Assembly (NCBI GenBank): GCA_016928955.1 | Contig: JAFGJV010000005.1 | Coordinates: forward strand, 1 to 44,832 | DNA length: 44,832 nt | From: Spirochaetales bacterium | Lineage (GTDB): Bacteria > Spirochaetota > Spirochaetia > Treponematales > UBA12059 | Direction of reading: 5' to 3' | In this document: in pieces, positions 2,484 to 27,700 of the stretch | How the letters are laid out: every line of letters begins with the position of its first letter | Numbering within the stretch: position 1 is the stretch's first letter | The notes under the pieces: model-generated | Told to the model about the DNA's origin: nothing | Database searches by the model: none | The model's input: the letters and a program-made list of their open reading frames with translations, nothing else | Translations under genes and position numbers: made by a program

Positions 2484-5400
2484 CTACCACAGCGTCATGG
2501 TTCCCCGGTCGCGCTCAAAGCCGATGCTTGAAAGCGCCCGGGACCACGGTCCGTCAGCCGCAGGCTGGCCGTTGACGCGGGCCACCACGATTTTCCGCTG
2601 GGGATCCACTGCCCGCTCCCTGGCCATGACCAGGAACGACAAAAGGGCTTCCAGGTCGGGATCGTCGGGCCTAAGCGACACGTCCAGTTCCCTGCCGCCT
2701 TGCCGCGACACGCACGCCAGCTCCCCGCCGCGGTAGGCCAGCCAGTTTCCCGCCAGGCGGGCGGGAGGCTTCAGCCCCCGCGCCACCGCTCGCCCGCCCA
2801 GGTCCATGCCAGCAAGGCTCGCCGGATCAGCCGCGCTGACGCTCCATATCCCGGTCTCCTCCGCTCCGTCCTTCCAGAGGGCATAGGCGTCCGTATCCAT
2901 GAACTGGGGGCCTTCCAGTTCCGCAAAAAAGCGCCCGCACACCAGCTCTCCCGCCAGTTCCATGCGCCTGAAGGCCGGGAACAGCCGGCCCCAGCGGAGC
3001 CCGGGAGCATCCCGTTCCAGGACGCCCCTGGCTACCACCCCGTATCTGAGGGCCGCTATCCTGGCACGCCTGGTATCCAAACCAAAGATGTCTGCCGGGT
3101 CAAGATCAAGCTGCTCGAGCTCCAGGGAAAACCAGCGTCCAGGAACGGGCGGCCCCGCCTTCCACCGGTCGCGCAAGGCCAGGGGCACACGCGGGTGCCC
3201 GGGTCGCGCGCCGTGTCGCTCGGGGAACCTGGCCTGTCCCGCGTCCGCCCCGCTGGCGCCTGGCCAGGCCTTCCTCCGCGGCCCGAAACTGTCGGAGCTT
3301 ATGCGGCCGGACCTCAGTTCCCGGCGCATGGCATCCCTGAGCGCTGCCAGGTCCAGGCCCGAGCTGTCCCTGATGGCCCATACGTCCACGGGCGAGTGGC
3401 CGGGGGCTATCAGCGAGCTCCGTGAGCCGTCCCAGAACAACTCCCAATCGTCCGGGGAGCAGAACGCCACGTCGTCGCCCTGGCCGTACCAGAGCACGGA
3501 GCCGGAGGACACAAGGGCGTCTAGGCTGTCGGGCGAATAGGCGCTGACGCGGGACGGAAAGATGGCTGTTTCCCACAGACCGGCCCTGGCCGGGTAACCT
3601 GACAGACGGCGCAGCACCTCGGACAGATCCTCGTTGCGCCTTCCCAGGCCGTGCAGGACGGCAAGGAAAGCGGCCAGGCTGCCTTCCGGCCGGGGTTTGA
3701 CGGCAGGCCGGGCCGCCGAGCGCACCGACCGCAGGAGGCCGTCCAGAATGTCCCTGTCGCATACCGCCGGCTCCGGTGGCCAGCCATCCACGCGGAAAGC
3801 CGACGCGTCCAGCACCACGGCCCCTTCGTCGCTCAAGGCCGCGCACAGTCCGTCCAGAAGCGCGGGTTCTGCCCCCGTCAGGAATCCAAGCCGGGAGAGC
3901 GCCACAATGCCTCCGCCGCGCAGCCACTCGGGCAGCCAGGCGTATGGCCCGGCTTTGAGGAGGCTACGGCGACGCTGGTGGACGACAAGGTCCATGCCGG
4001 CGCCCGGCAAGCGCAGGCGGGCAAGGCGACCAAGCGGCCCCGGCCTGGCCCCACCCTCAAGGGCGGCCACAGCTTCCGCGGCCAGGTCTGCGGGGCAGGC
4101 GGCAAGGAGGCGCTCCCACTCGTCCAGCGGCACGGCGACGCGCTCGTCCACCCAGTCTGCCAGGGCATCCGGGCTGTCAGGAGCCCAGCCGGGATCTTCC
4201 CTGAGAAGCCTGGCCATAAACGCGGCGTACACGGGTCCGGGTATAGCCGGCCTCTGGGCTTCATGGTCCAGGGCCTGGGCAAGGGCCCGGTCAGCGTAGC
4301 TGCCGGCGTCCGCCGCGCCCGAAGGCAGTTCGTCGCCATCATAAAGATAGCGATTGGTGGCCATCCAGCCCGAGCCGCGCGCCAGGGGACTGGGCACTGT
4401 GGACACGAAGGACGACAGCTCTATAGCCCCGGCCGCCAAGTCCGCAAGCACGGCCGCAAGCGCCGGCAGGTCGTAACGTTCGTCCAGGACCAGATGCCAG
4501 CTTTCCTTGATGGCCGGAACGTCCGGAGCCCCGGACAGACGCTCGAACAGGCGCTTTGCCCTGAGGCGGGTAATCCACAGGGGCGTGCGCCTGCCAAAAC
4601 CCGCCTTGGGAAGGAGCAGGGACCTGGCGGCGCATTCCCTGAAAGCCGCGCCGAAGGCCGCGCTGGTGGCCACCCTGGCGCGCAGGCGCCTGGCCAGTTC
4701 CCGGCCGTCTCCCAGGGTCTTGAAAGCGTCTTTGACGGCGCGCGCGGCTGAGGCGGGGTCCGGCAGGGGCACCAGGAGCCATACCGAGTCGTCATTGGCC
4801 AGGACGTCCACGCCCACGCCCAGATTCTCAGCCAGGATGCCGGAAACGGCCAGCCCAAGGGGTTCGTTCACGGCCAGGCCGCGCAGGGTGTGGACGAACA
4901 CGGGCACTGCGTCGCCGGAGCGGGCCGGATCCTTGTACAGTTCCAGCACTACCCGGCCCGCCCCAGGAAGTCCCAAGCCGCCGCCGGCCCGCGCCTGGGC
5001 CGACAGGAAGGCGTCCAGCCGATCCCGCGAGGAAGCGTCCATGTCCAGGCCAGCGAGCTCCCGCCGGAAGGCCTCAGGGTCATCCTGGAACAGAGCGCAC
5101 AGCCTGAGCATGCGGCCGCTCACGCCCGCTCCGCGCGCCGCCGTTTCCGCCTTCCAGAACGGCATGAAATCTGCCGCCCGGTCCAGGGGCTGGACTTCCA
5201 CCGCCTCGTCGCCAATGGCCACGATCTTCCACGCCATGGCTCCGAGCGTGAAGCTGTTGCCAACGCGACGCTCGAACACGAATTCCTCGTCCAGCTCGCC
5301 GATGCGCTCCCCCGAGCCGGCCAGCCGGAGCGAATAGTACCCTCTGTCTGCTATGGCACCGCCAGAGCCGTACAGAAGCATGGCGGCCCCGTCTTTGGCG

Positions 5401-6902
5401 CGCAGGGTACCGCGTTCGTCGTCCAGCCACACGCGCGCGGTAAGGTCCCGGGACCTCGACCCGTTCAGGCGGCCGGCCAGGGTGGCAAGCACGGCGTCGA
5501 AATCCTCCCTGCCCAGGTCGCGGTACGGCGAATAGGCGCGCACCCGGTCAAAGACATCCTGCACAGCCAGCTCGTCCCACAGGACGGCAGACAGAATGAC
5601 CTGGGCCAGAACGTCCAGGGGCTGGGACAGGGGGCGTACAGGATCAAGCTCCCGGTCCCGTACGGCTCCGGCCAGGGCTGCCGCCTGAAGAACATCCGGC
5701 GCGTGGAAGGGATAGAGCAGTCCCCTGCTCTCCGCTCCTACCCGGTGGCCCGACCTGCCTATGCGCTGTATGGCCTGGTCGGCCCTGGACGGGGTCCCCG
5801 CCAGGGCAACCAGGTCGATGGAGCCAACGTCTATGCCCAGTTCTAGGGAGCTGGTGGCCACAACGCAGGGCAGGCGGCCTTCCTTGAGTTTGCGCTCCAC
5901 GGCGCGCCGCACGTCCTTGGACAGGGATCCGTGGTGGGCCCAGGCCGTGCCGTCGCCGGCCTCCTCGTTGAGCATGGCCGCCAGGCGCTCGGCGCGCCGC
6001 CGCGAATCCGCGAACATGATGACTCCGCGCTCGTTCGGAAGCCTTTTGGCCAAATCCCTGACCACGGCGGCATAGCGAGACGCCGGGGCGTCGGTTTCCT
6101 GGGCGTCAGGAGACAGGCCGGGAACCGGCGGCCTAACGGGCGCCTGGGGCCAGAGTACGGACAGGGACAGGCGCCTTTCGTCGTCCCCCTGAACGATATC
6201 CACCGCGCGCTGTTTGTATACCGCGGCACCGTCCGGAGCGCGGCTCAGCTCAGCTCCGCCAACAAAACCGGCCGCCGCCTCTGGGTCGCGGAGGGTCGCC
6301 GACAAGGCCACGCGCTGGTACTCTCCGGCCAGTTCGGCCAGCATGCCCAGTGAGCAGGCCAGAAGGGTGCCGCGCCTGCCGCCCAGCACCGCGTGCAGTT
6401 CGTCCACCACGGCCAGCTTGACCGATGCCAGAAGGCCGCGGCCGCTTTTGGACGCCAGCATGATGGCCAGGCTTTCCGGCGTGGTGCAGAGCACGGATGG
6501 CGGGTGTTTGAGTATGCCACGGCGCTCTGCCGCGGCAGTGTCGCCAGAACGCGTGGCCACCCGTACCTTGGGAAAAGCCTGCCCTCGATCAACAAAAAAG
6601 CGTTCCAGGCCACGGACAGGGTCCAGGAGATTCAGGCGTATGTCCTCGTTCAAAGCTTTAAGCGGCGACACGTACAGCACGGACAGCGCGTTCGCGTCCA
6701 GGTCCCCGGACGCGAACCCGGACAGGGCGTGAAGAAAGGCTGCCAGGGTCTTGCCCGAGCCCGTAGGAGCCAGGGCCAGCACGTGGCGGCCCCCAGCTAT
6801 ACGTTCCCAGGCGCTGGATTGGACGGCGGTCGGCCTTCCTTTGGCCGTACTGAACCAGGCGGCGACCAGGGGGTGGAACGACGATGGGATGCCGGCGCAC
6901 AT
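2484..6902 (-). CDS. lhr: Lhr family ATP-dependent DEAD/H-box helicase, long form
   Basis: APTGSGKT, YVSPLKAL, TTPESL, DELH, SAT, HHGSLS, ATSSLELGIDVG, QRIGRSGH, GELDEEFVFE, and the C-terminal LRYGVV...ELAGE..GRF region. Start set to ATG 6902 because of the adjacent -10 element. Confidence 0.93.
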   Translation of the reverse strand: MCAGIPSSFHPLVAAWFSTAKGRPTAVQSSAWERIAGGRHVLALAPTGSGKTLAAFLHALSGFASGDLDANALSVLYVSPLKALNEDIRLNLLDPVRGLERFFVDRGQAFPKVRVATRSGDTAAAERRGILKHPPSVLCTTPESLAIMLASKSGRGLLASVKLAVVDELHAVLGGRRGTLLACSLGMLAELAGEYQRVALSATLRDPEAAAGFVGGAELSRAPDGAAVYKQRAVDIVQGDDERRLSLSVLWPQAPVRPPVPGLSPDAQETDAPASRYAAVVRDLAKRLPNERGVIMFADSRRRAERLAAMLNEEAGDGTAWAHHGSLSKDVRRAVERKLKEGRLPCVVATSSLELGIDVGSIDLVALAGTPSRADQAIQRIGRSGHRVGAESRGLLYPFHAPDVLQAAALAGAVRDRELDPVRPLSQPLDVLAQVILSAVLWDELAVQDVFDRVRAYSPYRDLGREDFDAVLATLAGRLNGSRSRDLTARVWLDDERGTLRAKDGAAMLLYGSGGAIADRGYYSLRLAGSGERIGELDEEFVFERRVGNSFTLGAMAWKIVAIGDEAVEVQPLDRAADFMPFWKAETAARGAGVSGRMLRLCALFQDDPEAFRRELAGLDMDASSRDRLDAFLSAQARAGGGLGLPGAGRVVLELYKDPARSGDAVPVFVHTLRGLAVNEPLGLAVSGILAENLGVGVDVLANDDSVWLLVPLPDPASAARAVKDAFKTLGDGRELARRLRARVATSAAFGAAFRECAARSLLLPKAGFGRRTPLWITRLRAKRLFERLSGAPDVPAIKESWHLVLDERYDLPALAAVLADLAAGAIELSSFVSTVPSPLARGSGWMATNRYLYDGDELPSGAADAGSYADRALAQALDHEAQRPAIPGPVYAAFMARLLREDPGWAPDSPDALADWVDERVAVPLDEWERLLAACPADLAAEAVAALEGGARPGPLGRLARLRLPGAGMDLVVHQRRRSLLKAGPYAWLPEWLRGGGIVALSRLGFLTGAEPALLDGLCAALSDEGAVVLDASAFRVDGWPPEPAVCDRDILDGLLRSVRSAARPAVKPRPEGSLAAFLAVLHGLGRRNEDLSEVLRRLSGYPARAGLWETAIFPSRVSAYSPDSLDALVSSGSVLWYGQGDDVAFCSPDDWELFWDGSRSSLIAPGHSPVDVWAIRDSSGLDLAALRDAMRRELRSGRISSDSFGPRRKAWPGASGADAGQARFPERHGARPGHPRVPLALRDRWKAGPPVPGRWFSLELEQLDLDPADIFGLDTRRARIAALRYGVVARGVLERDAPGLRWGRLFPAFRRMELAGELVCGRFFAELEGPQFMDTDAYALWKDGAEETGIWSVSAADPASLAGMDLGGRAVARGLKPPARLAGNWLAYRGGELACVSRQGGRELDVSLRPDDPDLEALLSFLVMARERAVDPQRKIVVARVNGQPAADGPWSRALSSIGFERDRGTMTLW

Positions 6903-6908
6903 ACGGTC

Positions 6909-6938
6909 ATGGTAGGGCCGCAAAGCCTGAAAGCGCAA
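6909..6938 (-). promoter_or_regulatory. Putative leaderless promoter of lhr
   Basis: Minus strand: TTGCGC-N18-TACCAT-N6-ATG; no SD. Confidence 0.5.
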
Positions 6939-6961
6939 GCGGCATCAGGTTGCTTTCCGGC

Positions 6962-7675
6962 TCAGACGCCGCGCACCCTGGTTTTGGGAGCCACGCGCCT
7001 GATGATGTCCGCCAGGTCCTTGAGCCGGGCCTCCGTCACAGGCCCAACCCGCTCCGCCCACGCCGGATCCAGTACGCGGGCCGAGCGGTATGCCTGGAGT
7101 ATCACCTGGTCGTCAGGGCGGAAATAGGGGGCAACAGCCTCAGCGTCATCCGGGCCAAAAATGCCTGGGGCGCAGGTTATCCGGAACTCGTAGGGTACGC
7201 CCATGGAGCGGATCACGTCCATGCTCCTGGCCACCCGTTCCGCGGCGTCCGCCGGTGCTCCCGGCCACAGCTCGCCGTAGCGCACCAGGGCCGTCTTCAC
7301 GTCCATGGCCACGTAATCCAGAGACAGTACTTCCAGGCGTTCGGGCTGGGAGCCGTTGGTGTCCAGCTTGACTGCGTAGCCCAGGCGGCGCGCGTCCGCC
7401 ACCAGCTCGGGCAGACAGGAAGTCATGGTGGGCTCGCCCCCGGATATAACCAGGCCCGTAAGGAGGCCCCGCCGTTGTTCCAGATGGGCCCTGAGCTCGG
7501 CCCAGGTCTGGCCCGCCGCGCCGGCTCTGTTGAGCGCCAGGTCGGGATTATGGCAGTACAGACAGCGGAAATTGCAGCCGGCCAGAAAGGCCACCGCCGA
7601 CACCCGGCCGGGATAATCGACGAGGCTCAAAGGCTGTATCCCGACGCGGACCGAGTCCAGGTCGGGCGCTTTCAC
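6962..7675 (-). CDS. nrdG: Anaerobic ribonucleoside-triphosphate reductase activating enzyme (radical SAM)
   Basis: SLVDYPG, GCNFRCLYCHNP (CxxxCxxC), ISGGEPT, KLDTNGS, AMDVK. The GTG start overlaps the upstream TGA (GTGA). Confidence 0.93.
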   Translation of the reverse strand: MKAPDLDSVRVGIQPLSLVDYPGRVSAVAFLAGCNFRCLYCHNPDLALNRAGAAGQTWAELRAHLEQRRGLLTGLVISGGEPTMTSCLPELVADARRLGYAVKLDTNGSQPERLEVLSLDYVAMDVKTALVRYGELWPGAPADAAERVARSMDVIRSMGVPYEFRITCAPGIFGPDDAEAVAPYFRPDDQVILQAYRSARVLDPAWAERVGPVTEARLKDLADIIRRVAPKTRVRGV

Positions 7676-8187
7676 ACCGCGGCGCTTTCCCGGACGGGCG
7701 CAAGGATGGCCTTGAGCTGGCCCGTGGTGTACGCGCGGGCGCATTCCTCCCCGTCGGCGTCCATCAGCACGGCCGTCGGCGTGGCCATGATGTCATAGGC
7801 GCGGGCAAGCTCGATGCCCTCGTCCGCGTCCACGTCCACAACATGGCCTTCAAGGGCCGTGGTCGCCAGATAGTCGCGCACGGGCGGGCAATTGTGGCAG
7901 GAACGGCGGGTAAAGAGCAGCCAGGACTGGGCGGGCTTGCCCGTATCCACCCGCCTGGTTCTCCCGGGTTCGGACGGCGCCGGCGCCTCGAAACCCCTGG
8001 TCTCGGCGCCCGGGAAGGAAAATTCCATTCGCTTGCCGAATTCCTCGCGTTTGCCGGCGTTCCAGTTCCTCACCGAGCGGTAGTAGCCCACAATGCGGGT
8101 ATATACCTCCGTGGGCGTTCCCTCGACCGACAACAGCTGCGTTTTCAGCTCGGCCAAACGAGCTTCTTTTACTTTCCGTGCGTCCAT
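7672..8187 (-). CDS. Stand-alone NrdD glycyl-radical domain fused to a CxxC thioredoxin/glutaredoxin domain
   Basis: N-half EVYTRIVGYYRSVRNWNAGKREEF is the class III RNR glycyl-radical loop. A Pro/Ala-rich linker follows, then LFTRRSCHNCPPV...VDVD...IMATPT (Trx fold, CxxC, cis-Pro motif). Own SD GGGAGGGG. Confidence 0.9.
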   Translation of the reverse strand: MDARKVKEARLAELKTQLLSVEGTPTEVYTRIVGYYRSVRNWNAGKREEFGKRMEFSFPGAETRGFEAPAPSEPGRTRRVDTGKPAQSWLLFTRRSCHNCPPVRDYLATTALEGHVVDVDADEGIELARAYDIMATPTAVLMDADGEECARAYTTGQLKAILAPVRESAAV

Positions 8188-8268
8188 CGTTCCCCTCCCA
8201 GTGCTTGTTCTTCTATCCGTGCTAACGGCGTTCCCGCCGCGGGCAAGCGCGATCGCAGGTTCCCGGCA

Positions 8269-10353
8269 TCAGAAACCGGCTAGCTCACGTTCCAGAATGG
8301 CTATTTCCTCCCGGATCCGAGCTTCCTTCTCCGCCTTGCATTTGGGGCAGGAGAAGTGCTCGCCGGCCACGTATCCGTGTACGGGGCACACGGAGAACGT
8401 GGGCGTGACCGTGTAGTAGGGAATGCGGTAGCGCGACGCCACAGCTCGCACCAGATCCCTCACGGCGCGCCAGTCCTCCACCGCCTCGCCCAGGAACATG
8501 TGGAAGACGGTGCCGCCCGTGTAGCGCTTCTGAAGGGACTCCTGGTGGTCCAGGGCGGCAAAGAGGTCGTCCGTGTGGTCAACGGGAAGCTGGGTAGAGT
8601 TGGTGTAATACGGCTCGTCCCCGCCGGCGCTAATGATTTCCGGATACCGGGACTTGTCGTGCTTGGCCAGGCGGTAGGACGTGCTCTCGGCCGGCGTGGC
8701 CTCCAGGTTGTACAGCTCTCCGGTGTCCTCCTGCAGGTCAGAGAGCCGCTGGCGTAAATGGTCCAGCACTTCCTCCGCAAAGGCCTTGCCTTCGGGCGCC
8801 GCCAGGCCCTTGCTCAGGAAATTGAGACAGCACTCGTTCATGCCCACCAGGCCTATGGTGTTGAAATGGTTGTCGAAATTCTTGAGATAGCGCTTTGTGT
8901 ATGGAAACAGGCCGCCATCGAGCAGCCGGGAGCACACCTTGCGCTTGATGGTCAGGCTCTTGGCCGCCAGGTCGGTCAGCCTGTCCAGGCGCTTATAGAA
9001 TTCCCCCTTGCCCTCGGACAGGTAGCCTATCCTGGGCAGGTTCAGGGTAACCACGCCGATAGAACCGGTCAGCTCGTCAGAGCCAAAAAGTCCGCCGCCG
9101 CGCTTGCGCAGTTCCCGCTTGTCCAGCTGGAGGCGGCAGCACATGGAGCGTACGTCGCCGGGGTCAAGGTCCGAGTTGACGAAATTCTGGAAATACGGCG
9201 TGCCGTACTTGGCCGTCATCTCGAACAGCAACTGGGCGTTGGGACTGTCCCACTCAAAATCCTTGGTAATGTTGTATGTCGGTATGGGATACTGGAAGCC
9301 CCTGCCGTCGGCGTCGCCGCCGAGCATGAGCTGAATGAACACACGGTTGACGGTGTCCATCTCCGCCTGGCAGTCGCCGTAGGTGAAATCCTGCTCCTTG
9401 CCTCCCACCACGGCCGGCCTGTCCCGCAGGTCCGGCGGGCACACCCAGTCCAGCGTGACGTTGGTAAAGGGAGCCTGGCTGCCCCAGCGGCTGGGCGTGT
9501 TCACCCCGAACATGAAGGACTGGATGCACTGCTTGACTTCCTCGTCCGACATGGCGTCGACCCGGACGAAGGGTGCCAGGTAGGTGTCGAAACTGGAAAA
9601 AGCCTGGGCTCCGGCCCACTCGTTCTGGAGTATGCCCAGGAAATTGACCATCTGCTGGACCAAGGTGGACAGATGCTTGGCCGGCGAGCTGGTGATCTTG
9701 TCAGGCACTCCGCCAAGGCCCTCGGCTATCAGCTGGCGGAGCGACCAGCCGGCGCAGTACCCTGAGAACATGGACAGGTCGTGGATGTGAAAGTCCGCGT
9801 TCTTGTGCGCCTCGGCAATTTCCTCGGGATAGATGTTCTTGAGCCAGTAGTTGGCGGTGACGCTGCCGGAATTGTGGAGGATGAGGCCGCCCAGGCTGTA
9901 GTTGACATTGGCGTTTTCCTTGACGCGCCAGTCCACCTGGGCCAGGTAGCCGTCCATGGTGGAGCTGATGTCCAGCATCAGTTTTTGGGCGTCGCGGACG
10001 GCCTGGCGTTTTGCCCGGTAGAGTATGTACGCCCTGGCCACTTCGGCCTCCCGGGCTTCTATCAGGGCCATCTCGACCAGGTCCTGGATCTCTTCTATGG
10101 CTGGTATCGAATTCGGGTGGCGCCCCGACTGGAGAAGCCCAAGGCGGGTTTCCACGTCGGTTACGATGCGCTCCACCTGGTCCCTGTCCGCCACGCCCCG
10201 GACCGCGCGGAAAGCCTTCTCTATGGCGGCCGCTATCCTACCGCGGTCATAGCGCTCCACGGAGCCCGAGCGCTTGGCCACCCATCGGCCGCCGTCGTCC
10301 GAAGCTCCAAGAAAAGACTTCCATTCAGGAAAAACGTCCCCTGGCTCGCCCAT
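8269..10353 (-). CDS. nrdD: Class III ribonucleoside-triphosphate reductase catalytic subunit, lacking the glycyl-radical loop
   Basis: N-terminal ATP cone (VAKRSG...YDRGRIAAAI), HIHDL, GYCAGW, RSMCCRL finger loop, LEATPAES, YTGGT, Zn site CPVH...CPKC. Ends in a helical tail with no RxxGY motif. Confidence 0.95.
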   Translation of the reverse strand: MGEPGDVFPEWKSFLGASDDGGRWVAKRSGSVERYDRGRIAAAIEKAFRAVRGVADRDQVERIVTDVETRLGLLQSGRHPNSIPAIEEIQDLVEMALIEAREAEVARAYILYRAKRQAVRDAQKLMLDISSTMDGYLAQVDWRVKENANVNYSLGGLILHNSGSVTANYWLKNIYPEEIAEAHKNADFHIHDLSMFSGYCAGWSLRQLIAEGLGGVPDKITSSPAKHLSTLVQQMVNFLGILQNEWAGAQAFSSFDTYLAPFVRVDAMSDEEVKQCIQSFMFGVNTPSRWGSQAPFTNVTLDWVCPPDLRDRPAVVGGKEQDFTYGDCQAEMDTVNRVFIQLMLGGDADGRGFQYPIPTYNITKDFEWDSPNAQLLFEMTAKYGTPYFQNFVNSDLDPGDVRSMCCRLQLDKRELRKRGGGLFGSDELTGSIGVVTLNLPRIGYLSEGKGEFYKRLDRLTDLAAKSLTIKRKVCSRLLDGGLFPYTKRYLKNFDNHFNTIGLVGMNECCLNFLSKGLAAPEGKAFAEEVLDHLRQRLSDLQEDTGELYNLEATPAESTSYRLAKHDKSRYPEIISAGGDEPYYTNSTQLPVDHTDDLFAALDHQESLQKRYTGGTVFHMFLGEAVEDWRAVRDLVRAVASRYRIPYYTVTPTFSVCPVHGYVAGEHFSCPKCKAEKEARIREEIAILERELAGF

Positions 10354-10355
10354 GC

Positions 10356-10826
10356 CTAATCCCCCCCGCGAGCGCTCTCCAAGCGCTCGATTTCTTTTAC
10401 GAATTCGTCCATCGACTCGAATTTGCGGTACACGCTGGCAAAGCGTATGTAAGCCACCTTGTCCAGTTCGTAGAGTTTGTGCAGGGTCATGCGGCCCAGT
10501 TCTGCGGAAGGCACCTCGTTAGTGCCCTTGCCCACCATGGCGGCCTCGTCCTCTATCTCGTTGAGGATATTTTCTATGGTAAGCTGGGAAACAGGCCGCT
10601 TCTCAAGGGCCCGCGACAAGCCACGCTCAAGTTTGGCGCGGTCAAAGGGCTCACGCCGCCCGTCGCGCTTGACGACCATCAGCGGCTTTTCCTCGATGCG
10701 CTCGTAACTGGTGAAGCGGAAACCGCACGCCAGGCACTCCCGCCTGCGGCGTATGCTCTCGCCATTGGCGAGCGTGCGTGAATCTATAACCCTGTCGTCC
10801 ATGGACAGGCAGTGGGGGCATCTCAC
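10356..10826 (-). CDS. nrdR: Transcriptional repressor NrdR
   Basis: MRCPHC...VIDSR...IRRRRECLACGFRFTSYE Zn ribbon, ATP cone, VAYIRFASVY. Confidence 0.97.
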   Translation of the reverse strand: MRCPHCLSMDDRVIDSRTLANGESIRRRRECLACGFRFTSYERIEEKPLMVVKRDGRREPFDRAKLERGLSRALEKRPVSQLTIENILNEIEDEAAMVGKGTNEVPSAELGRMTLHKLYELDKVAYIRFASVYRKFESMDEFVKEIERLESARGGD

Positions 10827-10906
10827 GGCGCGGGAACCTCCGAAACGTGCTCAGCGGAAAACAGACGGGCGTTGCCTAACTTGGTATGGTTCTTGCATTG
10901 CCACGC

Positions 10907-10922
10907 ATACTACAAATGGTGG
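10907..10922. promoter_or_regulatory. NrdR box 2
   Basis: Minus strand CCACCATTTGTAGTAT, similar to the acaCwAtATaTwGtg consensus; 32 bp from the other box. Confidence 0.75.
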
Positions 10923-10938
10923 ATACATAGCACCTACC

Positions 10939-10954
10939 CCACATGATATAGTGG
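10939..10954. promoter_or_regulatory. NrdR box 1
   Basis: Minus strand CCACTATATCATGTGG, near consensus; overlaps the -10 region of the operon promoter. Confidence 0.85.
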
Positions 10955-10973
10955 GTCAGCTAGGTCCTGTCAA
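10943..10973 (-). promoter_or_regulatory. sigma70-type promoter of the nrdR-nrdD operon
   Basis: TTGACA (10973-10968) followed by TATATC (17-nt spacer) or TATCAT (19-nt spacer). Confidence 0.65.
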
Positions 10974-11204
10974 TACTGAAAGAGGACGTAAACCGATTAA
11001 CGAATGTAAATTTTCTATAGCCCATCCTGGGCCCAAGCCCGCGCCCTGGCCAAAACACGTCAAAGCTTCGTACCACCGAACAGGAATGTGCGAAGAACGC
11101 TTGCCTTTTTGTCTCCACGGGGCGAATGTAATGGAGACACAGGCATCCGTGCCTGGCCGGTATCACATTACCCATACGGCTCGTCCGTTCAAGGAGGACA
11201 ATCC

Positions 11205-14305: not shown

Positions 14306-16444
14306 TCACTTGTACACGTCGCCCAAAGCGGCGCGTAGCATGCTTTCTATGTCTTTGTGGCCTAGCCGAACGGCCATGGCCAGGGCGTCGTCCTCTACCC
14401 AGTCGGTCAGGCGCAGGTCTGCCCCGGCGGCCATGAGCTGTTTCACCGCGGACGTATTGCCCGCCTGAACCGCCTGCATGAGGGCCGTTTCTCGCTTTCG
14501 CTCAATCACGCCGCTGGCCTTGCCCTTAAGGAGGTCCATGCGCGCGTTTGTATCAAGCTTGAGGCCAAGTACATAGTCGATCATGGCCTTGTTGCCAGAA
14601 CGCACGGCGTAGCCCAGGGCTGTGTAGCCCTCAAAAGAGACGCGGTGGACGTCGGCCCCTTTCTCGACCAGATACTTGGCGATGGTTACGTTGCCCGACT
14701 CGCAGGCGGCCAAGAACGGCGTGCGGTAGGGGTACAGCTCAAGCCCCACACTGGCGAGCTTTGGCTCCAACTCAGCACCTGAATCAAGAAGAAGTTTCAC
14801 CATGTCGAGCGACCCGCTTATGGCCGCGTCGCCCAGCATGGAATCACGGTGGGTTGGCCACATTGCGTTGAGCGCGTAGCCTTCAGCCAAGAGGAAGCGA
14901 ACTATGTCCAGTCGGCTGGCCATGATGGCGTCTTCCAGTATCTGCTTTTTTTCAAACATGCCAAGCTTGGCCGACGGCGACGTGTATACCGTCTTGAAGC
15001 CGCCTGTGTCGTTGGCAGCAACCCGCTCGAGCAAGAGTTCGTAGGTGCTTGGCGCGTAGTCGGGATACTCTTCCTTGAGGCCTCCCTTGTCCAAAAGATA
15101 GCGGTACAGTTCGGGGTTTTCTTTCTTGGCCGCGCGGAGGGCAGTCTCCATGTCTTCCTTGGGCAGATCCTGGCGCCGCTCAAGCAGAAGGTCAACGATC
15201 TCATAGGACTTGGTTATGGCATGCCAGCGCACGGCCATGGTCAAGGGATAGATAGCTAGCTTTTGGGCCGCAAGAAATGCTGTGAGATTGGGTAGTTCCT
15301 TGCGAAGGGCTGCCGCGCTTCCTGCATAGATGGCGCCCATGAGCGGATGCTCGGTGGCCCCTGCCTTGAGGAGGGCCGAGGCCAGGTCTGCGCGCAGGTC
15401 GGCACGGGCGGCGAGCATGGCTGTCCAGCCCTCGTCGTTTGGCTGGTTCACGTCCACGCCCGCGTCTATGAGCGCCTTGACCGTTGGGAAACTGCCGCTT
15501 GAGGTGGCAAACAGTATGGGCGAGCGCTGTTTTACGTCGTTCCTGGTGTAGTTTATGGTGCTCGAGCCCATGAAAAAATCGCTGACAAAGGCGGTGGCAG
15601 ACTTGGCGTTTATGTTGGCCCCGGCCTCTATGAGGAGTTTGCACACATCCGCATAACCTCCACGGGCGGCCATCATAAGCGGCGTGTACTTGTACTCCGA
15701 TACGGCCGCGTCCACTTTTGCCCCGGCGGCAAGCAGGAGGCGAACGCAGTCGGCATGCCCCATCGCAGAGGCGGCCCACAGGGGCGTGGCTTTAATGTAG
15801 CCAGACAAGCATGCGCTTGATTCAGTCTTGGCTTGCTGTTGTATTGCCTGTTCCACCAGGTCGGCGTATCCATGGAGTGATGCCTGAACCAAAAATGGAC
15901 CTGGGTCAGCGGTTCCATATCCGTTGCCGAAATTATTAACGTTATACGATGAGTGGGGCGCACGAAAAAAAAGCGACATGACTGCGTGGCTGGGTGTTTG
16001 CAATGCAAGAGCGTACAGCTTGTAGCTTGAGCCTACCGTGCATCCCTTGGCTATCAGGTAGTCCACGGTGGCCGGCTGTTCTAGCTCGGCCGCCCGTATA
16101 AGGGCGCGCTCGCCGCTTTCCTGGTCGAACCATCCGCGATCTACTATGGCCTTGACCACATCCAGCCGCCTGTGGGCAACGGCCAGTTCCAGGGGCGTGG
16201 CGTCCTTGGGGCTGACCACATACTCTCCCTCGCCCACGCCCTGGCTGACCAGGGACAAAGCGCGGCTGTAATCCCTGAGCTTTATGGCCCGCATGAGCGG
16301 GGCCGCGCTGGCTATGGTGCCGCCCTCGCCGTAGGCCTGGTCGCCGCCCATTTCCAGCATTTTTGACACGGTGGCGCACGAGCTTAAGACAAGGGCTGAA
16401 AGCGCCAGGGCGCACACGAGCGAACGAAAAGGTCTGTTCTTCAT
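14306..16444 (-). CDS. Ankyrin-repeat lipoprotein
   Basis: Lipobox LSSC; many ankyrin repeats (TPLWAAS..GH, TPLMMAARGG, TPFLAACESGN, TALMQAVQAGN); SD AAGGAG. Confidence 0.88.
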   Translation of the reverse strand: MKNRPFRSLVCALALSALVLSSCATVSKMLEMGGDQAYGEGGTIASAAPLMRAIKLRDYSRALSLVSQGVGEGEYVVSPKDATPLELAVAHRRLDVVKAIVDRGWFDQESGERALIRAAELEQPATVDYLIAKGCTVGSSYKLYALALQTPSHAVMSLFFRAPHSSYNVNNFGNGYGTADPGPFLVQASLHGYADLVEQAIQQQAKTESSACLSGYIKATPLWAASAMGHADCVRLLLAAGAKVDAAVSEYKYTPLMMAARGGYADVCKLLIEAGANINAKSATAFVSDFFMGSSTINYTRNDVKQRSPILFATSSGSFPTVKALIDAGVDVNQPNDEGWTAMLAARADLRADLASALLKAGATEHPLMGAIYAGSAAALRKELPNLTAFLAAQKLAIYPLTMAVRWHAITKSYEIVDLLLERRQDLPKEDMETALRAAKKENPELYRYLLDKGGLKEEYPDYAPSTYELLLERVAANDTGGFKTVYTSPSAKLGMFEKKQILEDAIMASRLDIVRFLLAEGYALNAMWPTHRDSMLGDAAISGSLDMVKLLLDSGAELEPKLASVGLELYPYRTPFLAACESGNVTIAKYLVEKGADVHRVSFEGYTALGYAVRSGNKAMIDYVLGLKLDTNARMDLLKGKASGVIERKRETALMQAVQAGNTSAVKQLMAAGADLRLTDWVEDDALAMAVRLGHKDIESMLRAALGDVYK

Positions 16445-16516
16445 ACAAGCTCCTTCAACAAGCTCTGGATTCGTTTGGCTGGGATTATTTTCTTAGTCCC
16501 CGAAACCAATTCAATT

Positions 16517-17806
16517 CTAATTGGCTACAATATCGTCCTTAAAAGTTTTCCAGACATCCGCCGCTTGATAATCAGACAACACGGCAAACGGTACATAGTA
16601 GGTACGGTCGGGCATCAAAGACGGATCCCCGTAGAACGTGTATGTATCAATCGTGGGTGGAACCATAGGATACAGGCGAACTGATGTTAGCGCGTGGCAC
16701 CAGCCAAACACGCCGTAGGGCATAGTGGTGATCCCATACCCTAGCACAACGGAGTTCAGTGAATCGCAGCCTTGAAAAACGCTATAGCCCAGCTCGTTGA
16801 TGCTACCTAGGTCGACGGTCTCAAGGGCATCGCAGTTCTCGAAGGCGGAATCAAGCATTTTCGTTACGTTCGGTGCATCGGGTAGCGAGCTAAGCCTCAA
16901 GCAGCCTTCGAACGCATGAGGTGAGAACTCCGTCAAAGAGCTGCCAAGGCTGGCGCGCTCAAGGGCTTCACAATGGGCAAAAGCAAGCTCGCCAATAGTC
17001 TGGAGAGAGTCGGGAGCATCTATCTCCTTCAGCGCGTCGCACATAAAAAAGGCTTGAACCCCTATGGACTGGAGCTTGCTTCCAAAGCTGACGGTCTCCA
17101 AGGCATCACAACGGTAAAAAGCCTGGTTGCCTATGCTCAAAAGCCCGTCGGGTAGCTCTATGGCCGTCAGTGATGTACACCTGAGAAAAGCTCCATTGCC
17201 TAAGGAGGTGACCTTTGATCCAATATCAACCGAGAGTAAGGCGGAGCAACCTGAAAAAACAGAATCGCCTATTGTTGTAACCGACTCGGGCACGGTAACC
17301 CGTTTGATAACCGTGTTGCCGTCCACTTTGAAAAAGGTCTGGTTCAGCGCCGTTACAGGCATGCCGCTATCCGCCGTCGGAGGTATGGCCACGTATTCGT
17401 CGCTTCCAATGTATATCCCAAGGGTAACCTGACCCCCCGCGGAGGTTCTGCCAAAATCGGTGTAGGGCGTGTAGGTCAGCTCATACAGAGCTTCCGCACA
17501 GGAGGATGTATCCCAGCCATCCTTACAGGCTATGGCCTTCATGGTTTCCGCTATGGGGATAGGTCCTGAATAAACTGGGCTTGTCGAGTCCGGCTCGGAA
17601 CCGTCTACCGTGTAGCGAATCAAAGCCCCGTCGGTGGAACAGGTAATTTCCACGAGCCGGGCCCTGTTCTGCGGCCCCGGTTCCAGTGAAAAGCCGGGAA
17701 TCGCCACAACGGGCACTTCGTCCACACCAAGGGCGCACGAGGCAAAACCCAGTGTAACGGTAAAGAGCGTAAGCGTAATGGCCCAAGACGCGTTCTTTCT
17801 GTTCAT
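16517..17806 (-). CDS. BspA-type leucine-rich repeat (LRR_5) lipoprotein with an N-terminal Fn3-associated/chitobiase-like domain
   Basis: Lipobox FASC; IRYTVDGSEPDSTSPVYSGPI; about 23-aa repeats of the type IG..AF..C.SL..V.LP.SL. Confidence 0.88.
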   Translation of the reverse strand: MNRKNASWAITLTLFTVTLGFASCALGVDEVPVVAIPGFSLEPGPQNRARLVEITCSTDGALIRYTVDGSEPDSTSPVYSGPIPIAETMKAIACKDGWDTSSCAEALYELTYTPYTDFGRTSAGGQVTLGIYIGSDEYVAIPPTADSGMPVTALNQTFFKVDGNTVIKRVTVPESVTTIGDSVFSGCSALLSVDIGSKVTSLGNGAFLRCTSLTAIELPDGLLSIGNQAFYRCDALETVSFGSKLQSIGVQAFFMCDALKEIDAPDSLQTIGELAFAHCEALERASLGSSLTEFSPHAFEGCLRLSSLPDAPNVTKMLDSAFENCDALETVDLGSINELGYSVFQGCDSLNSVVLGYGITTMPYGVFGWCHALTSVRLYPMVPPTIDTYTFYGDPSLMPDRTYYVPFAVLSDYQAADVWKTFKDDIVAN

Positions 17807-17869
17807 AGTCTCCCCTTCAATCATGTACTTGCCTTTTGGTTCTCTATAGGCACGAAAACATTTCTGCCC

Positions 17870-19153
17870 TCATTTCCGGAAATCAAAAACGGCTCCGGCG
17901 GTTTCTGCCAGGGTAGCGCTCCGCTCTTCTCCCACCAGAATGCCTGTTGGGTGGACGGCCACCGCCGAACCGAACCAATTGGATTCGTCCGGATTCGGAG
18001 AGGACAAAACGGACACCATGCGCCACAGGCCGTCTGGACAGAGCCTATATACCCATGCGATACCCGCATTGCTTGCGAATCTGTTGTCGTAGGGATCCGA
18101 CACAGCCATTCTTCCGGCCGCTATGCTCACGTGCCGGTACTGGTGCGTATTACTGCCCGTAGACGGAGGGACAAATTGGGCTTCCCGGGCCCAAGAGCCC
18201 GTTCCCGAATCCCGCTTAAAGATGCACACAGGGGCATCTATACCGCTGGACGGATTACCCAAAGCGGCTACGACGGCTCGATCGCCGTCAAAGGCAAGAG
18301 ATGAGCCAAAGCCAAGGCCGGCTATGCCTTCATTGGGCACCAGCTCGCGCGTATGGCTCCAACTTGTGCCGTCGTACTCGTATACATACACAAGCCCGCA
18401 GGCAACATTGTCCACTGCTTCCGGATCAAAGGCGTATTCCGCGCCCGTAGCCCCGGCCAGTATGATGCCGTCTCCCATGGCCAAGGAAGTCCCAAGGCGA
18501 TAGTCTGTCCAGCTGTTGTCGTCCAGCGTTGCTTCAAGCGACCACGCTGTTCCGGAGCGCTTGAACACATATACGATTCCCGCGGATTCTATTGCTCCTG
18601 CCTTTTTATCCGGCGCTCCTATAACCGCCCGATCTCCATACAGGGCAAGGGAAGCGCCGAAGTAGTCACCGGCAAGCGGACTGGGCGCTGCTAGTTCCGC
18701 CTCCTGGGTCCAGGAACCGTCGGCCCCCCTAGCAAACACAAACACGGCGCCTCGGAGGCTTGATCTCCGGGGCGCGCCCACGAGTGCCAGGTCTCCGTGT
18801 ATGGCCCCCGTAGTACCGGCTTCATCCCGCGGATCAAGATCCGATGGCTTGAGCGTGGCTACATGCTTCCATATACCGCTTGCGTCCAGCTCGTACACAA
18901 ACGCGCCGACGTCGGCTCCAATGGTAGGGCAGCCTACCAGAGCCCTGTTCTGATGTACTGATATGGAACGGCCCATGTGGCTGTTAGGGTATTCGGATGG
19001 ATGGTCCAGGCGCTCCAGGGAGCGGGCGACATACTGTTCTGAATAGTCCGTATACGAATTCACATCCGAGCAGGAGGCCAGCAAAGACGGCCCCAGTACC
19101 ATACATACACAAACCATGCAGGCCAGGGAAGCCCGCGCTCCTCTACATTTCAT
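17870..19153 (-). CDS. FG-GAP repeat (integrin-alpha-like beta-propeller) lipoprotein
   Basis: Lipobox LASC; repeats such as DYFGASLALYGDRAVIGAP...AGIVYVFKRSGTAW. Confidence 0.85.
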   Translation of the reverse strand: MKCRGARASLACMVCVCMVLGPSLLASCSDVNSYTDYSEQYVARSLERLDHPSEYPNSHMGRSISVHQNRALVGCPTIGADVGAFVYELDASGIWKHVATLKPSDLDPRDEAGTTGAIHGDLALVGAPRRSSLRGAVFVFARGADGSWTQEAELAAPSPLAGDYFGASLALYGDRAVIGAPDKKAGAIESAGIVYVFKRSGTAWSLEATLDDNSWTDYRLGTSLAMGDGIILAGATGAEYAFDPEAVDNVACGLVYVYEYDGTSWSHTRELVPNEGIAGLGFGSSLAFDGDRAVVAALGNPSSGIDAPVCIFKRDSGTGSWAREAQFVPPSTGSNTHQYRHVSIAAGRMAVSDPYDNRFASNAGIAWVYRLCPDGLWRMVSVLSSPNPDESNWFGSAVAVHPTGILVGEERSATLAETAGAVFDFRK

Positions 19154-19219
19154 GCTGCACCTCTTTGTGCGGCAGTCTAGCGCAGAAGCTTGCATCTGAG
19201 TAAAAGGGCCGGGGCTGAT

Positions 19220-24785: not shown

Positions 24786-27700
24786 ATGACCAAGACAGGG
24801 TCGCACAAGAGCGCTTTTTCGTCGGTCGTGACGATCGTCGCGCTGATCCTATCGGCACTGGTGCTTTCAACCTGCAAGGGCCCCTTGTTCGGGCTCGGCG
24901 GTGCCGTCGACCTGGAAGCTCCCCGGTCAATCGAGGTTACCCCCGGTTCCGGCTCGTACCGTTCCGGCGTCATAGCCGTGAGCGGCGTGGCCGAGGACGC
25001 ATACGGCCTGGCTTCAGCCAGCGTGTCCGTCCTGGACAAAGCCACGGGGCAGGTGCTCAGGACCTACCCGGCCACCGTGTCTGGTTCCACCTGGACCACA
25101 GGCGCCGTGGTGGATACCACGCAGTTCCCTGACGGCCAGTACACCGTGGCCGTTACCCTCAAGGACGCGCGCGGCAACTCGTCGGAGGACCGCGTTCTCA
25201 TAGGCTTTGACAACAGCGCGCCCACCGTGCTGGTGGAGGAGCCCCTGGACCTGGACGCAGAGTACAACGGCTACATCACCCTGGCCGGCCAGGCGCACGA
25301 CAGCATGTCGTCCATCGTGAGCGTCACCGTGGGCGTGTACCGCGCCAGCGACTCAAGCATGGTGGACGAGTTCCTGTCCGCCACCGTGCCCAAATGGGCC
25401 GTGCAGTTCAACGCCGCCGATCCCGCGTACTCCCTGACCCTGGCCGATCTCGTGCTGGTGGTCCAGGCCACCGACGAGGGCGGCAATACCAACACCTGGC
25501 AGTACGAGTACAAGCCCCTGGCCACGGCCAACGCCGGCAGCCCCGTGACCGCGTCCCTTGTGAACCAGCTCGAGTCCCAGGCCCAGGATACGGACACGGT
25601 GGACGGCCTGACCTTCAACAAGGCGACGCTCCTGTCCTACCGCTCCTTCCTGGACCCTGCCGTGCCGGCAGACGCGTCCATACTCAAGGTCAATGTAGAC
25701 AGCGACAAGCCCACGTTCACCTTCGTGACGCCCGGAGAGGCTTCCATCAGCGAGGCCACCGCCGAGCGTTACGCCGGTGGCACCAAGGCAAACGGAACCA
25801 TCAGCGACGACGACAACAACGAAACCATGCTTGCGTGGTACCGCTACGTTCCTTCCACCGGCAATATTGAGGACGGAGCCTGGACCCCCGCCACGGTGGA
25901 AGGCTCCGGTTACGACCAGCGCTGGAGCTTCAACCTTCCAGGAACGAACGGTATCTATAAGATCCAGGTTAGGGCCCAGGACAAAATAGTAGCCGGTAGC
26001 CCGACAGCTGACAGCGTGTTCGGGGAGTCCGCCGTTCGCTATGTGATAGTGGACGATGGACGCCCCTTGGTCAGCATAGACACGAACAATCCCGTACCGT
26101 GGAACCTGTATTACGGTAGCGGCCAGTCCATACTGGTCAGCGGCTCGGCGTCGCGCACCGGCGTCGGGAACTCGATCGTGGACGTTGAGATCCAGGTCGG
26201 CTCGAATCCCTGGGCCGACGTTACGGGTCTTTCGGGACTGGGCACGAACACCGTTACCTGGTCCAGCCATTCTTTGTCCCTGGCTGGCTTGCCAGGCGGA
26301 TCCACCCAGGTTCGGGTACGCGCCCAGGATAATCTGGGCGTATGGGGCCAGGCGGAAGTCCTCATTATCATGGACGTTGACGCCCCGGTCATTACCATCA
26401 GCGACCCGGGCGTGGACCTGAACGGTTCCGTTACCTTCCGGGGCATCACCGAGGACGGCGCGGCGGACGCCTTTATCACCGTGCTCGACCGCGTGCAGGC
26501 CAAGCTGGACGCGGCGTTTACCGCAGATCCCGACGACGGCACCGAGATCACCGGCACCTATTCGTGGTCCTGGCTGTACAACACCCAGAGCCTCTCGGAC
26601 GGCGGCCATACCCTGTACATACGCGCCTGGGACACGGCCGGAAACTCGTCCACCACAAGCCGCGCCTTCACCGTGCTCCAGAGCACGGATAAACCCAGCG
26701 TGGCGGTGAACAACCTTGCAGGCGGCGAGGTTATAGGCGGTACCTTCACGGTGTCAGGCACGGCCAGTGACGACGACGGCGTGGCATCCGTTGACGACGG
26801 CATCCAGATTCTGATCGAGCGCGAGGATCCTCCGGCCACCTGGACCGTTTACCAGGCCTGGACGGACATAGCATCCCGCTCAGGCTCGCCGTCAGCGTAC
26901 TCGTGGACCTATGCCCTGCCCTCCCTGCCCTCGGGCAGCTACCGCGTGAGCGTCCGCGCGCGCGACATCAATTCCGTCGTGGGCGACTACGGCTCGGCGG
27001 CCCTGCCCCAGGCCAACTACTGGGCGTCCACCGCGGCCCTGGCCATCAACGTGGACAACGACGTGCCCGTGGTCAACCAGGCTGCCTTCGTCCCAGCCAC
27101 CGGCTCCTACGTCAACGCCGGCTTCACGCTCTCAGGCACCATCACCGAGGACAAGGGCCTGTCTGCGGTCACCGTGTACGTCAACGGCACGGCCCGCGGC
27201 AGCGCCACCGTGACCGGCGCCGCGCCCACGTACTCCTTCGAGTTCGCCGTGGACCAGGCCTGGCTCACCGGCGTCGGCGGCGCCAACGCCATACGCGTGG
27301 ACGCTACCGATACCTCAGACCCGGCCAAAACCGGCTCCGGCCAGATCCAGGTGATCTTTGACGACTCGGAACCTTCGGCGTCCTTCCTGACCCCGGATGA
27401 CGGCTCAACGGTCAACGGCCTCATAGCCGTGAGCGGCACGGCCAGCGACAACAACCAGGTAAGCGCCCTGTACTACGCCGTTGCCACGTCGGCCCCGGCC
27501 TGGCCGGGCGGCTACACCCTGCTTACCGGGCAGAAATACTCCTTCAACTTCACCCTGGACACCACCGCCTATACCGACGACACGGCCTACACCGTGTACG
27601 TTGTGGCCGTTGACGGAGCGGGCAACGATTCGTCGCTGTCTCCCGCGACCCTGGCCATCGATATCGACCAGGACTCGGACCGGCCCATCATCAAGCTGTC

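Follow-up and report, generated by a model that had tools for sequence, protein, structure and literature searches.

Class III ribonucleotide reductase (RNR) is described in reviews and structure papers, including PMC9669993, as one chain, NrdD, with the radical loop at its C-terminus, and thioredoxin is the reductant of its double-cysteine type (PMC9669993, PMC4493059, PMC9176816). This thioredoxin-using type, the NrdD2 of Wei et al., is marked by a third cysteine (xCCR) and an active-site glutamate (PMC9669993, PMC4493059); in Thermotoga maritima the latter is the proton donor Glu495 (residue number from PMC9669993). Spare parts for a glycyl radical enzyme have been demonstrated for pyruvate formate-lyase (PFL) only, according to PMC8683613, which poses the case of other enzymes as an open question and in which phage T4 carries a small PFL spare part, Y06I, alone. 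Here we describe a locus from a Spirochaetales bacterium in which NrdD is encoded by two genes, the glycyl-radical loop residing on a protein of 171 amino acids (aa) that also has a thioredoxin-like domain. The DNA analysed, hereafter the window, comprises 44,832 nucleotides (contig JAFGJV010000005.1 of assembly GCA_016928955.1, positions 1 to 44,832). The split is almost certainly genuine, and from sequence and modelling it is highly probable that the large and small chains would form a functional two-chain enzyme. Taking the parts list and the tether together, the system is likely to be a two-chain class III RNR of the double-cysteine, thioredoxin-using type.

The operon lies on the minus strand in the order nrdR, nrdD-large, the 171-aa gene and nrdG (coordinates are window positions, and all features of the operon are on this strand). 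The large subunit of 694 aa (8269-10353) carries an ATP cone at residues 25-117 (10003-10281; PF03477, E 3e-20), the barrel, the finger loop, the entire Zn site and a C-terminal helix, and ends without the glycyl loop; its scores against class III RNR families exceed the cut-offs (TIGR02487, 473.7 against 326.35; NF006126, 1075 against 548). Its beta-A cysteine, Cys200 (9754-9756), aligns with T. maritima Cys125, Cys405 and Cys406 lie in the finger-loop motif MCCR (residues 404-407; 9133-9144), and Glu551 (8701-8703) aligns with Glu495, so that these positions match the marker residues of the thioredoxin-using type (SCCR and E495 in T. maritima). The Zn site, C656-x2-H659 ... C669-x2-C672 (8338-8388), is wholly within this chain. 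The small subunit (171 aa, 18.9 kDa; 7672-8187) has its own Shine-Dalgarno sequence, GGGAGGGG (8192-8199), and consists of a putative docking helix, the glycyl-radical loop, a variable linker and the thioredoxin-like domain. Its predicted radical site is Gly34 of the motif YTRIVGY (codon GGC, 8086-8088). In a set of 66 large and small sequence pairs the catalytic residues and the glycyl loop are invariant in every pair: Cys200 (C77 of A1), the MCCR motif, Glu551 (E428 of A1), the four Zn ligands, and R31, I32, V33, G34 and Y35 of the small chain.

Profile searches place the break precisely. On the Pfam NRDD profile the large chain covers positions 1-532 of 562 (PF13597, 585.9 bits) and the small chain positions 532-562, the latter with 30.8 bits against a curated cut-off of 26.2; on NCBIfam TIGR02487 the corresponding spans are 1-552 and 552-580. 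The two genes thus tile NRDD without overlap and jointly make up one complete profile. Two class III RNR features are present, a Zn site preceding the position of the glycyl loop and an adjoining radical-SAM activase, NrdG; the loop itself sits not on the C-terminus of the catalytic chain but on the next gene. A motif of the [YFW][ST]R[IVP]xGY type occurs once in six frames of the 59-contig genome (99.5% complete), in the small gene, and no second NrdD was found in that genome. Because the genome has no other glycyl loop, the small subunit would be obligatory. The sequence-only reading of this DNA had anticipated the parts of the large chain, its lack of a glycyl motif, the place of that motif and its glycine codon on the small gene, the separate Shine-Dalgarno sequence and a CHNC redoxin fold behind the loop, all of which stood; its parallel with GrcA/YfiD did not carry over as far as a spare part for an intact enzyme, since the small chain bears the only radical loop in the genome. 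In current databases the small protein is labelled, loosely, ribonucleoside-triphosphate reductase or hypothetical.

The split is not a peculiarity of this contig. The small protein was matched in 33 of 41 related genomes, and among 20 loci returned from them 18 hold both parts and all 18 are split, or 17 of 17 once the present window is set aside. A survey of the gene neighbourhood gave the same picture: in the best 80 of 251 confirmed loci, collected with a query that included the helix and so favours split forms, and partly repeating genomes of the 41-genome set, the genes are split in 71, fused in none, and without a large gene in nine. Six of these nine end within 700 nt upstream; the other three (L089, L108 and L111, named Treponema putidum) have 4 kb of upstream sequence without a large gene. 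An NRDD family search, unbiased by the helix, matched 168 of 301 genomes of the phylum, and of the best 150 matches listed (218 further ones lie beyond them) 122 end at profile positions 525-539 and 28 reach 560-562. When 22 of the 122 early-ending matches were cut out, all 22 large open reading frames (ORFs) ended without a glycyl loop, the small piece falling outside the 4 kb cut in five. In G026, G030 and G038, three complete genomes, distances of 602, 527 and 95 kb separate the large gene from a small gene that has kept its place next to nrdG, and both helices are retained; at such distances the parts can meet only as proteins. Judged by gene content, the split layout is common among spirochaetes, the loop being a separate gene in most of the spirochaete NrdDs sampled.

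Several variants were seen alongside. The large and small genes are unlinked in G026, G030 and G038 (L022, L023, L035-L040) and at L111, and the unlinked small subunits have no redoxin and instead a short tail ending in a CDC or CNCDC motif, perhaps a redoxin remnant or a minimal redox tail. NrdD of the formate type (MGCR) is also split at L034, L138 and L139, where a separate glycyl peptide of 56-60 aa lacks a zipper helix of the kind seen here. A second type of split among MCCR enzymes has CPxxH in the region of the last Zn ligand and a small peptide with neither helix nor redoxin (L126, L144, L145, L150-L152, L154, L155, L158 and L159, with L127 as a one-chain member).

What would hold the two chains together is an extra, charged helix on each protein at the break. 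The sequence-only reading mentions neither these helices nor the frame shared by the splitting TGA (8269-8271) and the small gene. These amphipathic helices, large residues 673-694 (8272-8337; I680, I684, L687, L691) and small residues 2-20 (8128-8184; L11, L14, L18; pLDDT 92), are without counterpart in the T. maritima (4COI) alignment. Among the 66 paired sequences, large positions 680, 684 and 687 are hydrophobic in 66, 65 and 64, and small positions 11 and 18 in 64 to 66. A complex model of large residues 124-694 with the small chain scored 0.82 against 0.00 for the best control, on a scale whose mark 116 of 157 solved complexes attain, as do 2 of 215 mismatched pairs; contacts were at least 86% the same from run to run, and the partner pLDDT was at least 72. 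The modelled interface spans small residues 4-59: strand 26-30 and the glycyl loop lie against the barrel, and the helices run antiparallel to each other, residues 4, 7, 8, 10, 11, 14, 15, 17 and 18 facing large 673-694 in a heptad pattern. Nature has also made the fused form: one-chain proteins P0191 and P0192 have both helices joined as a hairpin, and of the 120 listed one-chain proteins fused to a redoxin, another 13 show a shortened hairpin, whereas in 97 the link is at most 10 aa long and without helices. The inter-chain pairs K145/A44, L691/R4 and E683/R10 rank 1, 3 and 20 of 82,795 in covariation, and each is a compensatory swap between positions that touch in the model.

Several points tell against the two-chain explanation, or at least discount it. 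The score counts hold only roughly, as our own alignments were used, and split-gene halves tend to pass such a complex test because they resemble solved one-chain NrdDs, so that the loop part of the interface may pass by that likeness. The covariation was given little weight because the tree shows mainly one clade switch and because many other high-ranking pairs do not correspond to contacts. The genome also encodes a class II-type RNR of 1154 aa (G000:C13:46729-49437) with a CxxC/CxxC tail. A class I or II enzyme was found in all five relatives tested, and with another RNR present, need for the split enzyme is no proof of its function; an argument from a sole RNR failed for this reason. We nevertheless consider it very likely, from the model, that the helix pair tethers the small chain to the large one. 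Seven one-chain NrdDs (P0191, P0192, P0198, P0203, P0206, P0219 and P0225) have a full, shortened or absent hairpin between the Zn site and the glycyl loop, and most of them fall on one branch beside split relatives.

The C-terminal half of the small chain adopts a thioredoxin fold in the AF2 model (about 97 pLDDT over residues 88-160), and its top Foldseek matches are thioredoxins. The domain (residues 88-169; 7681-7926) has its CxxC, C97-H-N-C100, before helix 1 and a conserved proline, Pro137, before strand 3, and C97, C100 and P137 are invariant in the 66 pairs, a set selected to contain CxxC. Taken alone, this half exceeds no Pfam or NCBIfam sequence-family cut-off (best Pfam E 0.001). 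CxxC is present in 120 of 120 listed small homologues (as CPNC in 105) and in 67 of 69 closed small ORFs; its distance from the preceding glycine ranges from 27 to 194 residues. One-chain proteins with NrdD, loop and redoxin were found among spirochaetes and, going by the names of their sources, also in Margulisbacteria, Wallbacteria, Clostridia and an archaeon; among the 120 listed, 119 have MCCR and all 120 the Glu motif, the query favouring that clade, and the redoxin was found at none of nine MGCR-type loci. In the genome there are a thioredoxin reductase, scoring over its cut-off, and a ferredoxin-thioredoxin reductase-like gene adjoining a glutaredoxin-like gene (G000:C8:53873-54461). 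A family search found no match to PFL in the genome, the only formate source looked for, and PF01228, the PFL-type Gly_radical domain, matched neither the small protein nor the genome. On these sequence grounds the redoxin is a credible reductant of its enzyme. It is, by the same comparisons, neither tied to the split nor obligatory, being found on one-chain NrdDs and missing from some small subunits, and the branching of redoxin-bearing one-chain forms outside the helix-split group in a rooted quick tree suggests that it may have arisen before the split. That tree had 67 rows, 28 having been dropped (all MGCR rows and one long branch among them) and 21 one-chain proteins added. The sequence-only reading had one small protein bringing both radical and reductant in trans; delivery of the loop in trans is supported by the conserved split, the unlinked genes and the complex model, and the redoxin is plausible in its part, but a redoxin is not obligatory.

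A mechanism can be outlined from these parts. The large chain contributes the ATP cone, barrel, catalytic cysteines and complete Zn site, and the small chain restores the 30 C-terminal profile positions that are missing, in sequence and presumably in chemistry. NrdG would place the radical on Gly34 of the small chain. The helices at the end of one chain and the start of the other would zip antiparallel in place of the lost peptide bond, as in the model and in keeping with the natural hairpin fusions, and a zipper of this kind would allow the glycyl loop to leave the barrel for activation without loss of the subunit. The CxxC domain, on its flexible linker, would probably re-reduce the cysteines of the enzyme and itself be reduced, with similar probability, by the thioredoxin reductase or the ferredoxin-linked system. 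Finally, cleavage by O2 at Gly34 might cost the cell a 19 kDa part and not the 78 kDa one, a step that we hold more tentatively.

Phages offer a further view of the small piece. Of 65 viral loci, 56 could be parsed by pattern, and in 39 the small piece stands without a large gene at the same locus. In 23 viral records picked for a helix before the loop, a large gene is present in one, and in none of the eight with at least 90% completeness; in five of these eight near-complete records a family search gave NRDD positions 531-562 as the sole NrdD match, with no NrdG2. Helix-plus-loop pieces lie at L169:3956-4153, L173:3959-4147, L178:3938-4198, L167:3887-4165 and L171:3986-4483, the last comprising helix, loop and redoxin, and their neighbours include primase, helicase, terminase, thymidylate synthase and single-strand binding genes. 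No PHROG family was found for the two short phage pieces scanned. These records, which parallel phage T4 and its Y06I for PFL (PMC8683613), favour a spare-part role. It is conceivable, at somewhat under even chances, that the small chain is an obligatory and renewable radical cartridge, exchanged after O2 cleavage, equipped with its own reductant and portable by phages; cheap repair after O2 cleavage as the benefit of the split is a possibility of the same order. If true, phages encode a piece of only 60-170 aa to keep or take over the anaerobic dNTP supply of the host, and the spare-part principle would for the first time extend beyond PFL to another glycyl radical enzyme, in the majority NrdD form of a whole phylum. 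One viral split NrdD (G333, L163; C1:35112-37835) has its large gene interrupted at the finger loop by about 960 nt in one open frame, intein-like.

Could the split be an artefact? The sequence is from an assembly and the genome has a second RNR, so that a sequencing error or a decaying pseudogene has to be considered. The TGA that splits the enzyme (8269-8271) is, however, crossed unchanged by contigs of runs X2 (7751-10900) and X15 (7995-8380), from two other studies (contigs of X3 and X5 end too close to the stop and were not counted), which refutes an error there, and the split is kept across families with invariant active-site residues; this explanation is thus vanishingly improbable. An RNA-library run gave contigs spanning both genes and the junction, which alone do not show transcription. 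Read-through of the TGA, for instance as selenocysteine, would yield one chain and no true split; it was put to the test because only open codons, 27 in number, separate the TGA from the small gene in the same frame, and the genome has a tRNA-SeC. Among 71 split relatives, however, 57 are out of frame and 14 in frame (gaps range from -14 to 284 nt), and six of those 14 have additional stops; the nearest relatives, L042 and L044, are out of frame. Large genes of these loci end in all three stop codons (TAA 34, TGA 27, TAG 10), the RNA that follows the UGA folds with no greater stability than shuffled sequences (z 0.40), the small gene has its own Shine-Dalgarno sequence, and in three genomes the halves are at distant loci. 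Read-through was rejected on the frames, stops and RNA folding, and we regard it as very improbable.

Two further alternatives leave the split in place and concern its meaning. The chains may cooperate while the split itself is neutral, a gene fission tolerated thanks to the helices and flipping back and forth with no repair benefit, and we give this about the same, less than even, weight as the spare-part explanation. Speaking for neutrality and against a repair benefit, one-chain forms fall within the split forms at several points of the tree, monophyly of the 29 helix-split rows is rejected (AU p 0.0047), and one branch (99%) unites split relatives with chains that have a full hairpin, shortened ones or, in one case, no helices. 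Nor does the small gene have a clear excess in its ribosome-binding site, which is stronger than that of the large gene in 31, equal in 4 and weaker in 16 of 51 loci with all three starts found (medians -10.0 against -9.6 kcal/mol); excess synthesis of the small chain was rejected on these near-equal values. A tight zipper could moreover hold the cleaved stub, residues 1-33, and hinder exchange, and a phage peptide could equally be a decoy. Neutral fission sits less easily with splits at nearly the same place in at least three separate branches of the phylum, including helix-less MCCR and formate-type MGCR enzymes (a count from a tree using 74 of 111 rows, its thorough search unfinished), or with near-complete phage records that keep the small piece alone, and it leaves the parts list, the tether and the redoxin steps uncontested. 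As to the redoxin, it might not be the turnover reductant, serving instead to maintain cysteines or the Zn site in the reduced state needed for activation, with turnover driven by formate or a free thioredoxin. The redoxin is absent from the small subunits of G026, G030 and G038 and from 65 of 70 short homologues; in the complex model the domain and the finger cysteines lie outside the confident interface, which is no evidence either way; the Met retained in the finger motif leaves formate open as reductant (PMC9669993); and an activating role of thioredoxin for Escherichia coli NrdD is cited in PMC4390871. The near-universal CxxC of the listed small homologues and closed small ORFs, the association of the domain with double-Cys, Glu enzymes and the lack of a PFL match in the genome tell against an activation role, which we judge rather unlikely; that the redoxin is the turnover reductant seems, from the sequences, reasonably probable.

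The remaining genes of the operon are nrdG and nrdR. The nrdG gene (6962-7675) encodes an activase of the NrdG2 type (TIGR02495, 167.9 bits against a cut-off of 131.15), and its probable GTG start (7673-7675) overlaps the TGA of the small gene. This overlap would allow the coupling to nrdG proposed by the sequence-only reading, but it is a local feature: of 69 split relatives whose small ORF is closed, 12 have an NTGA overlap. The regulator gene nrdR (10356-10826; TIGR00244, 190 bits against 124.65) precedes nrdD-large, and an nrdR start motif was found in 57 of 80 related loci. Upstream of nrdR we read by eye two palindromes 32 nt apart (10939-10954 and 10907-10922) that resemble what we take to be the NrdR-box consensus and, further upstream, a perfect TTGACA (10968-10973). 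A pattern scan of the whole window gave one NrdR box, which is at chance level; single boxes occur in 17 of 55 upstream regions of relatives, and by a strict pattern none of the 55 has a pair. No promoter-like site was found in 6800-11150. The palindrome pair at 10907-10954 is a likely candidate for the control site of the operon, and its spacing fits the 'three helix turns' of PMC9110341. Elsewhere in the window, a 1484-aa Lhr-type helicase (2484-6938) is the next gene downstream of nrdG and shares its strand, 14306-19195 encodes a series of proteins with ankyrin, BspA-type LRR and FG-GAP repeats, and a 2850-aa protein with bacterial Ig-like repeats occupies 24786-33338.

If the pair works, it provides a natural test of whether glycyl radical enzymes besides PFL have spare parts, a small soluble substrate for studying the access of NrdG to its glycine and, in its tethered redoxin, a means of trapping the electron route into double-cysteine class III enzymes. 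It would then also be wrong to file a 'truncated nrdD' or a tiny 'nrdD fragment' from a genome or phage as a pseudogene. We found no description of a split NrdD with a separate glycyl loop in the full-text literature, subscription papers being mostly outside that coverage, and this is probably an undescribed two-chain architecture of a known enzyme. The small chain would have been invisible to the large survey of PMC9531940, which excluded proteins under 400 aa. Split phage nrdD genes are reported in PMC3653736, through introns, inteins or unexplained breaks, and the excerpted RefSeq survey of PMC6187632, one supplement aside, lists one grx::nrdD fusion (Lachnospiraceae TWA4) and no spirochaete.

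The present system shares with one-chain class III RNRs (T. maritima NrdD, 4COI/4U3E; Neisseria bacilliformis NrdD2) the barrel, beta-A cysteine, xCCR and Glu, a Zn site of CxxxH/CxxH type, the glycyl loop and an NrdG activase. It differs in that their loop is the enzyme's own C-terminus and their thioredoxin is free, whereas here the loop is on a second gene with a redoxin fused behind it, and each chain has a helix added relative to the T. maritima enzyme. As with E. coli GrcA/YfiD and the phage T4 protein Y06I, a small separate protein would bring the radical glycine into the barrel of another chain. The present genome has a single NrdD and a single loop motif, whereas YfiD stands in reserve for an enzyme with a loop of its own, and GrcA/YfiD is a PFL-type PF01228 domain, which the small protein lacks. 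In the split class II RNR NrdJa/NrdJb of Pseudomonas aeruginosa (PMC5704485) the C-terminal part for terminal reduction is likewise a separate gene, but that enzyme uses B12, and what it encodes separately is a Zn domain rich in cysteines rather than a glycyl loop or a thioredoxin fold. The glutaredoxin-NrdB fusion of Facklamia ignava is a class I system with an N-terminal Grx, unlike the arrangement here; in both, a redoxin is tethered to the subunit that supplies the radical, and in F. ignava the fused glutaredoxin is a proven reductant of its own RNR (PMC6187632).

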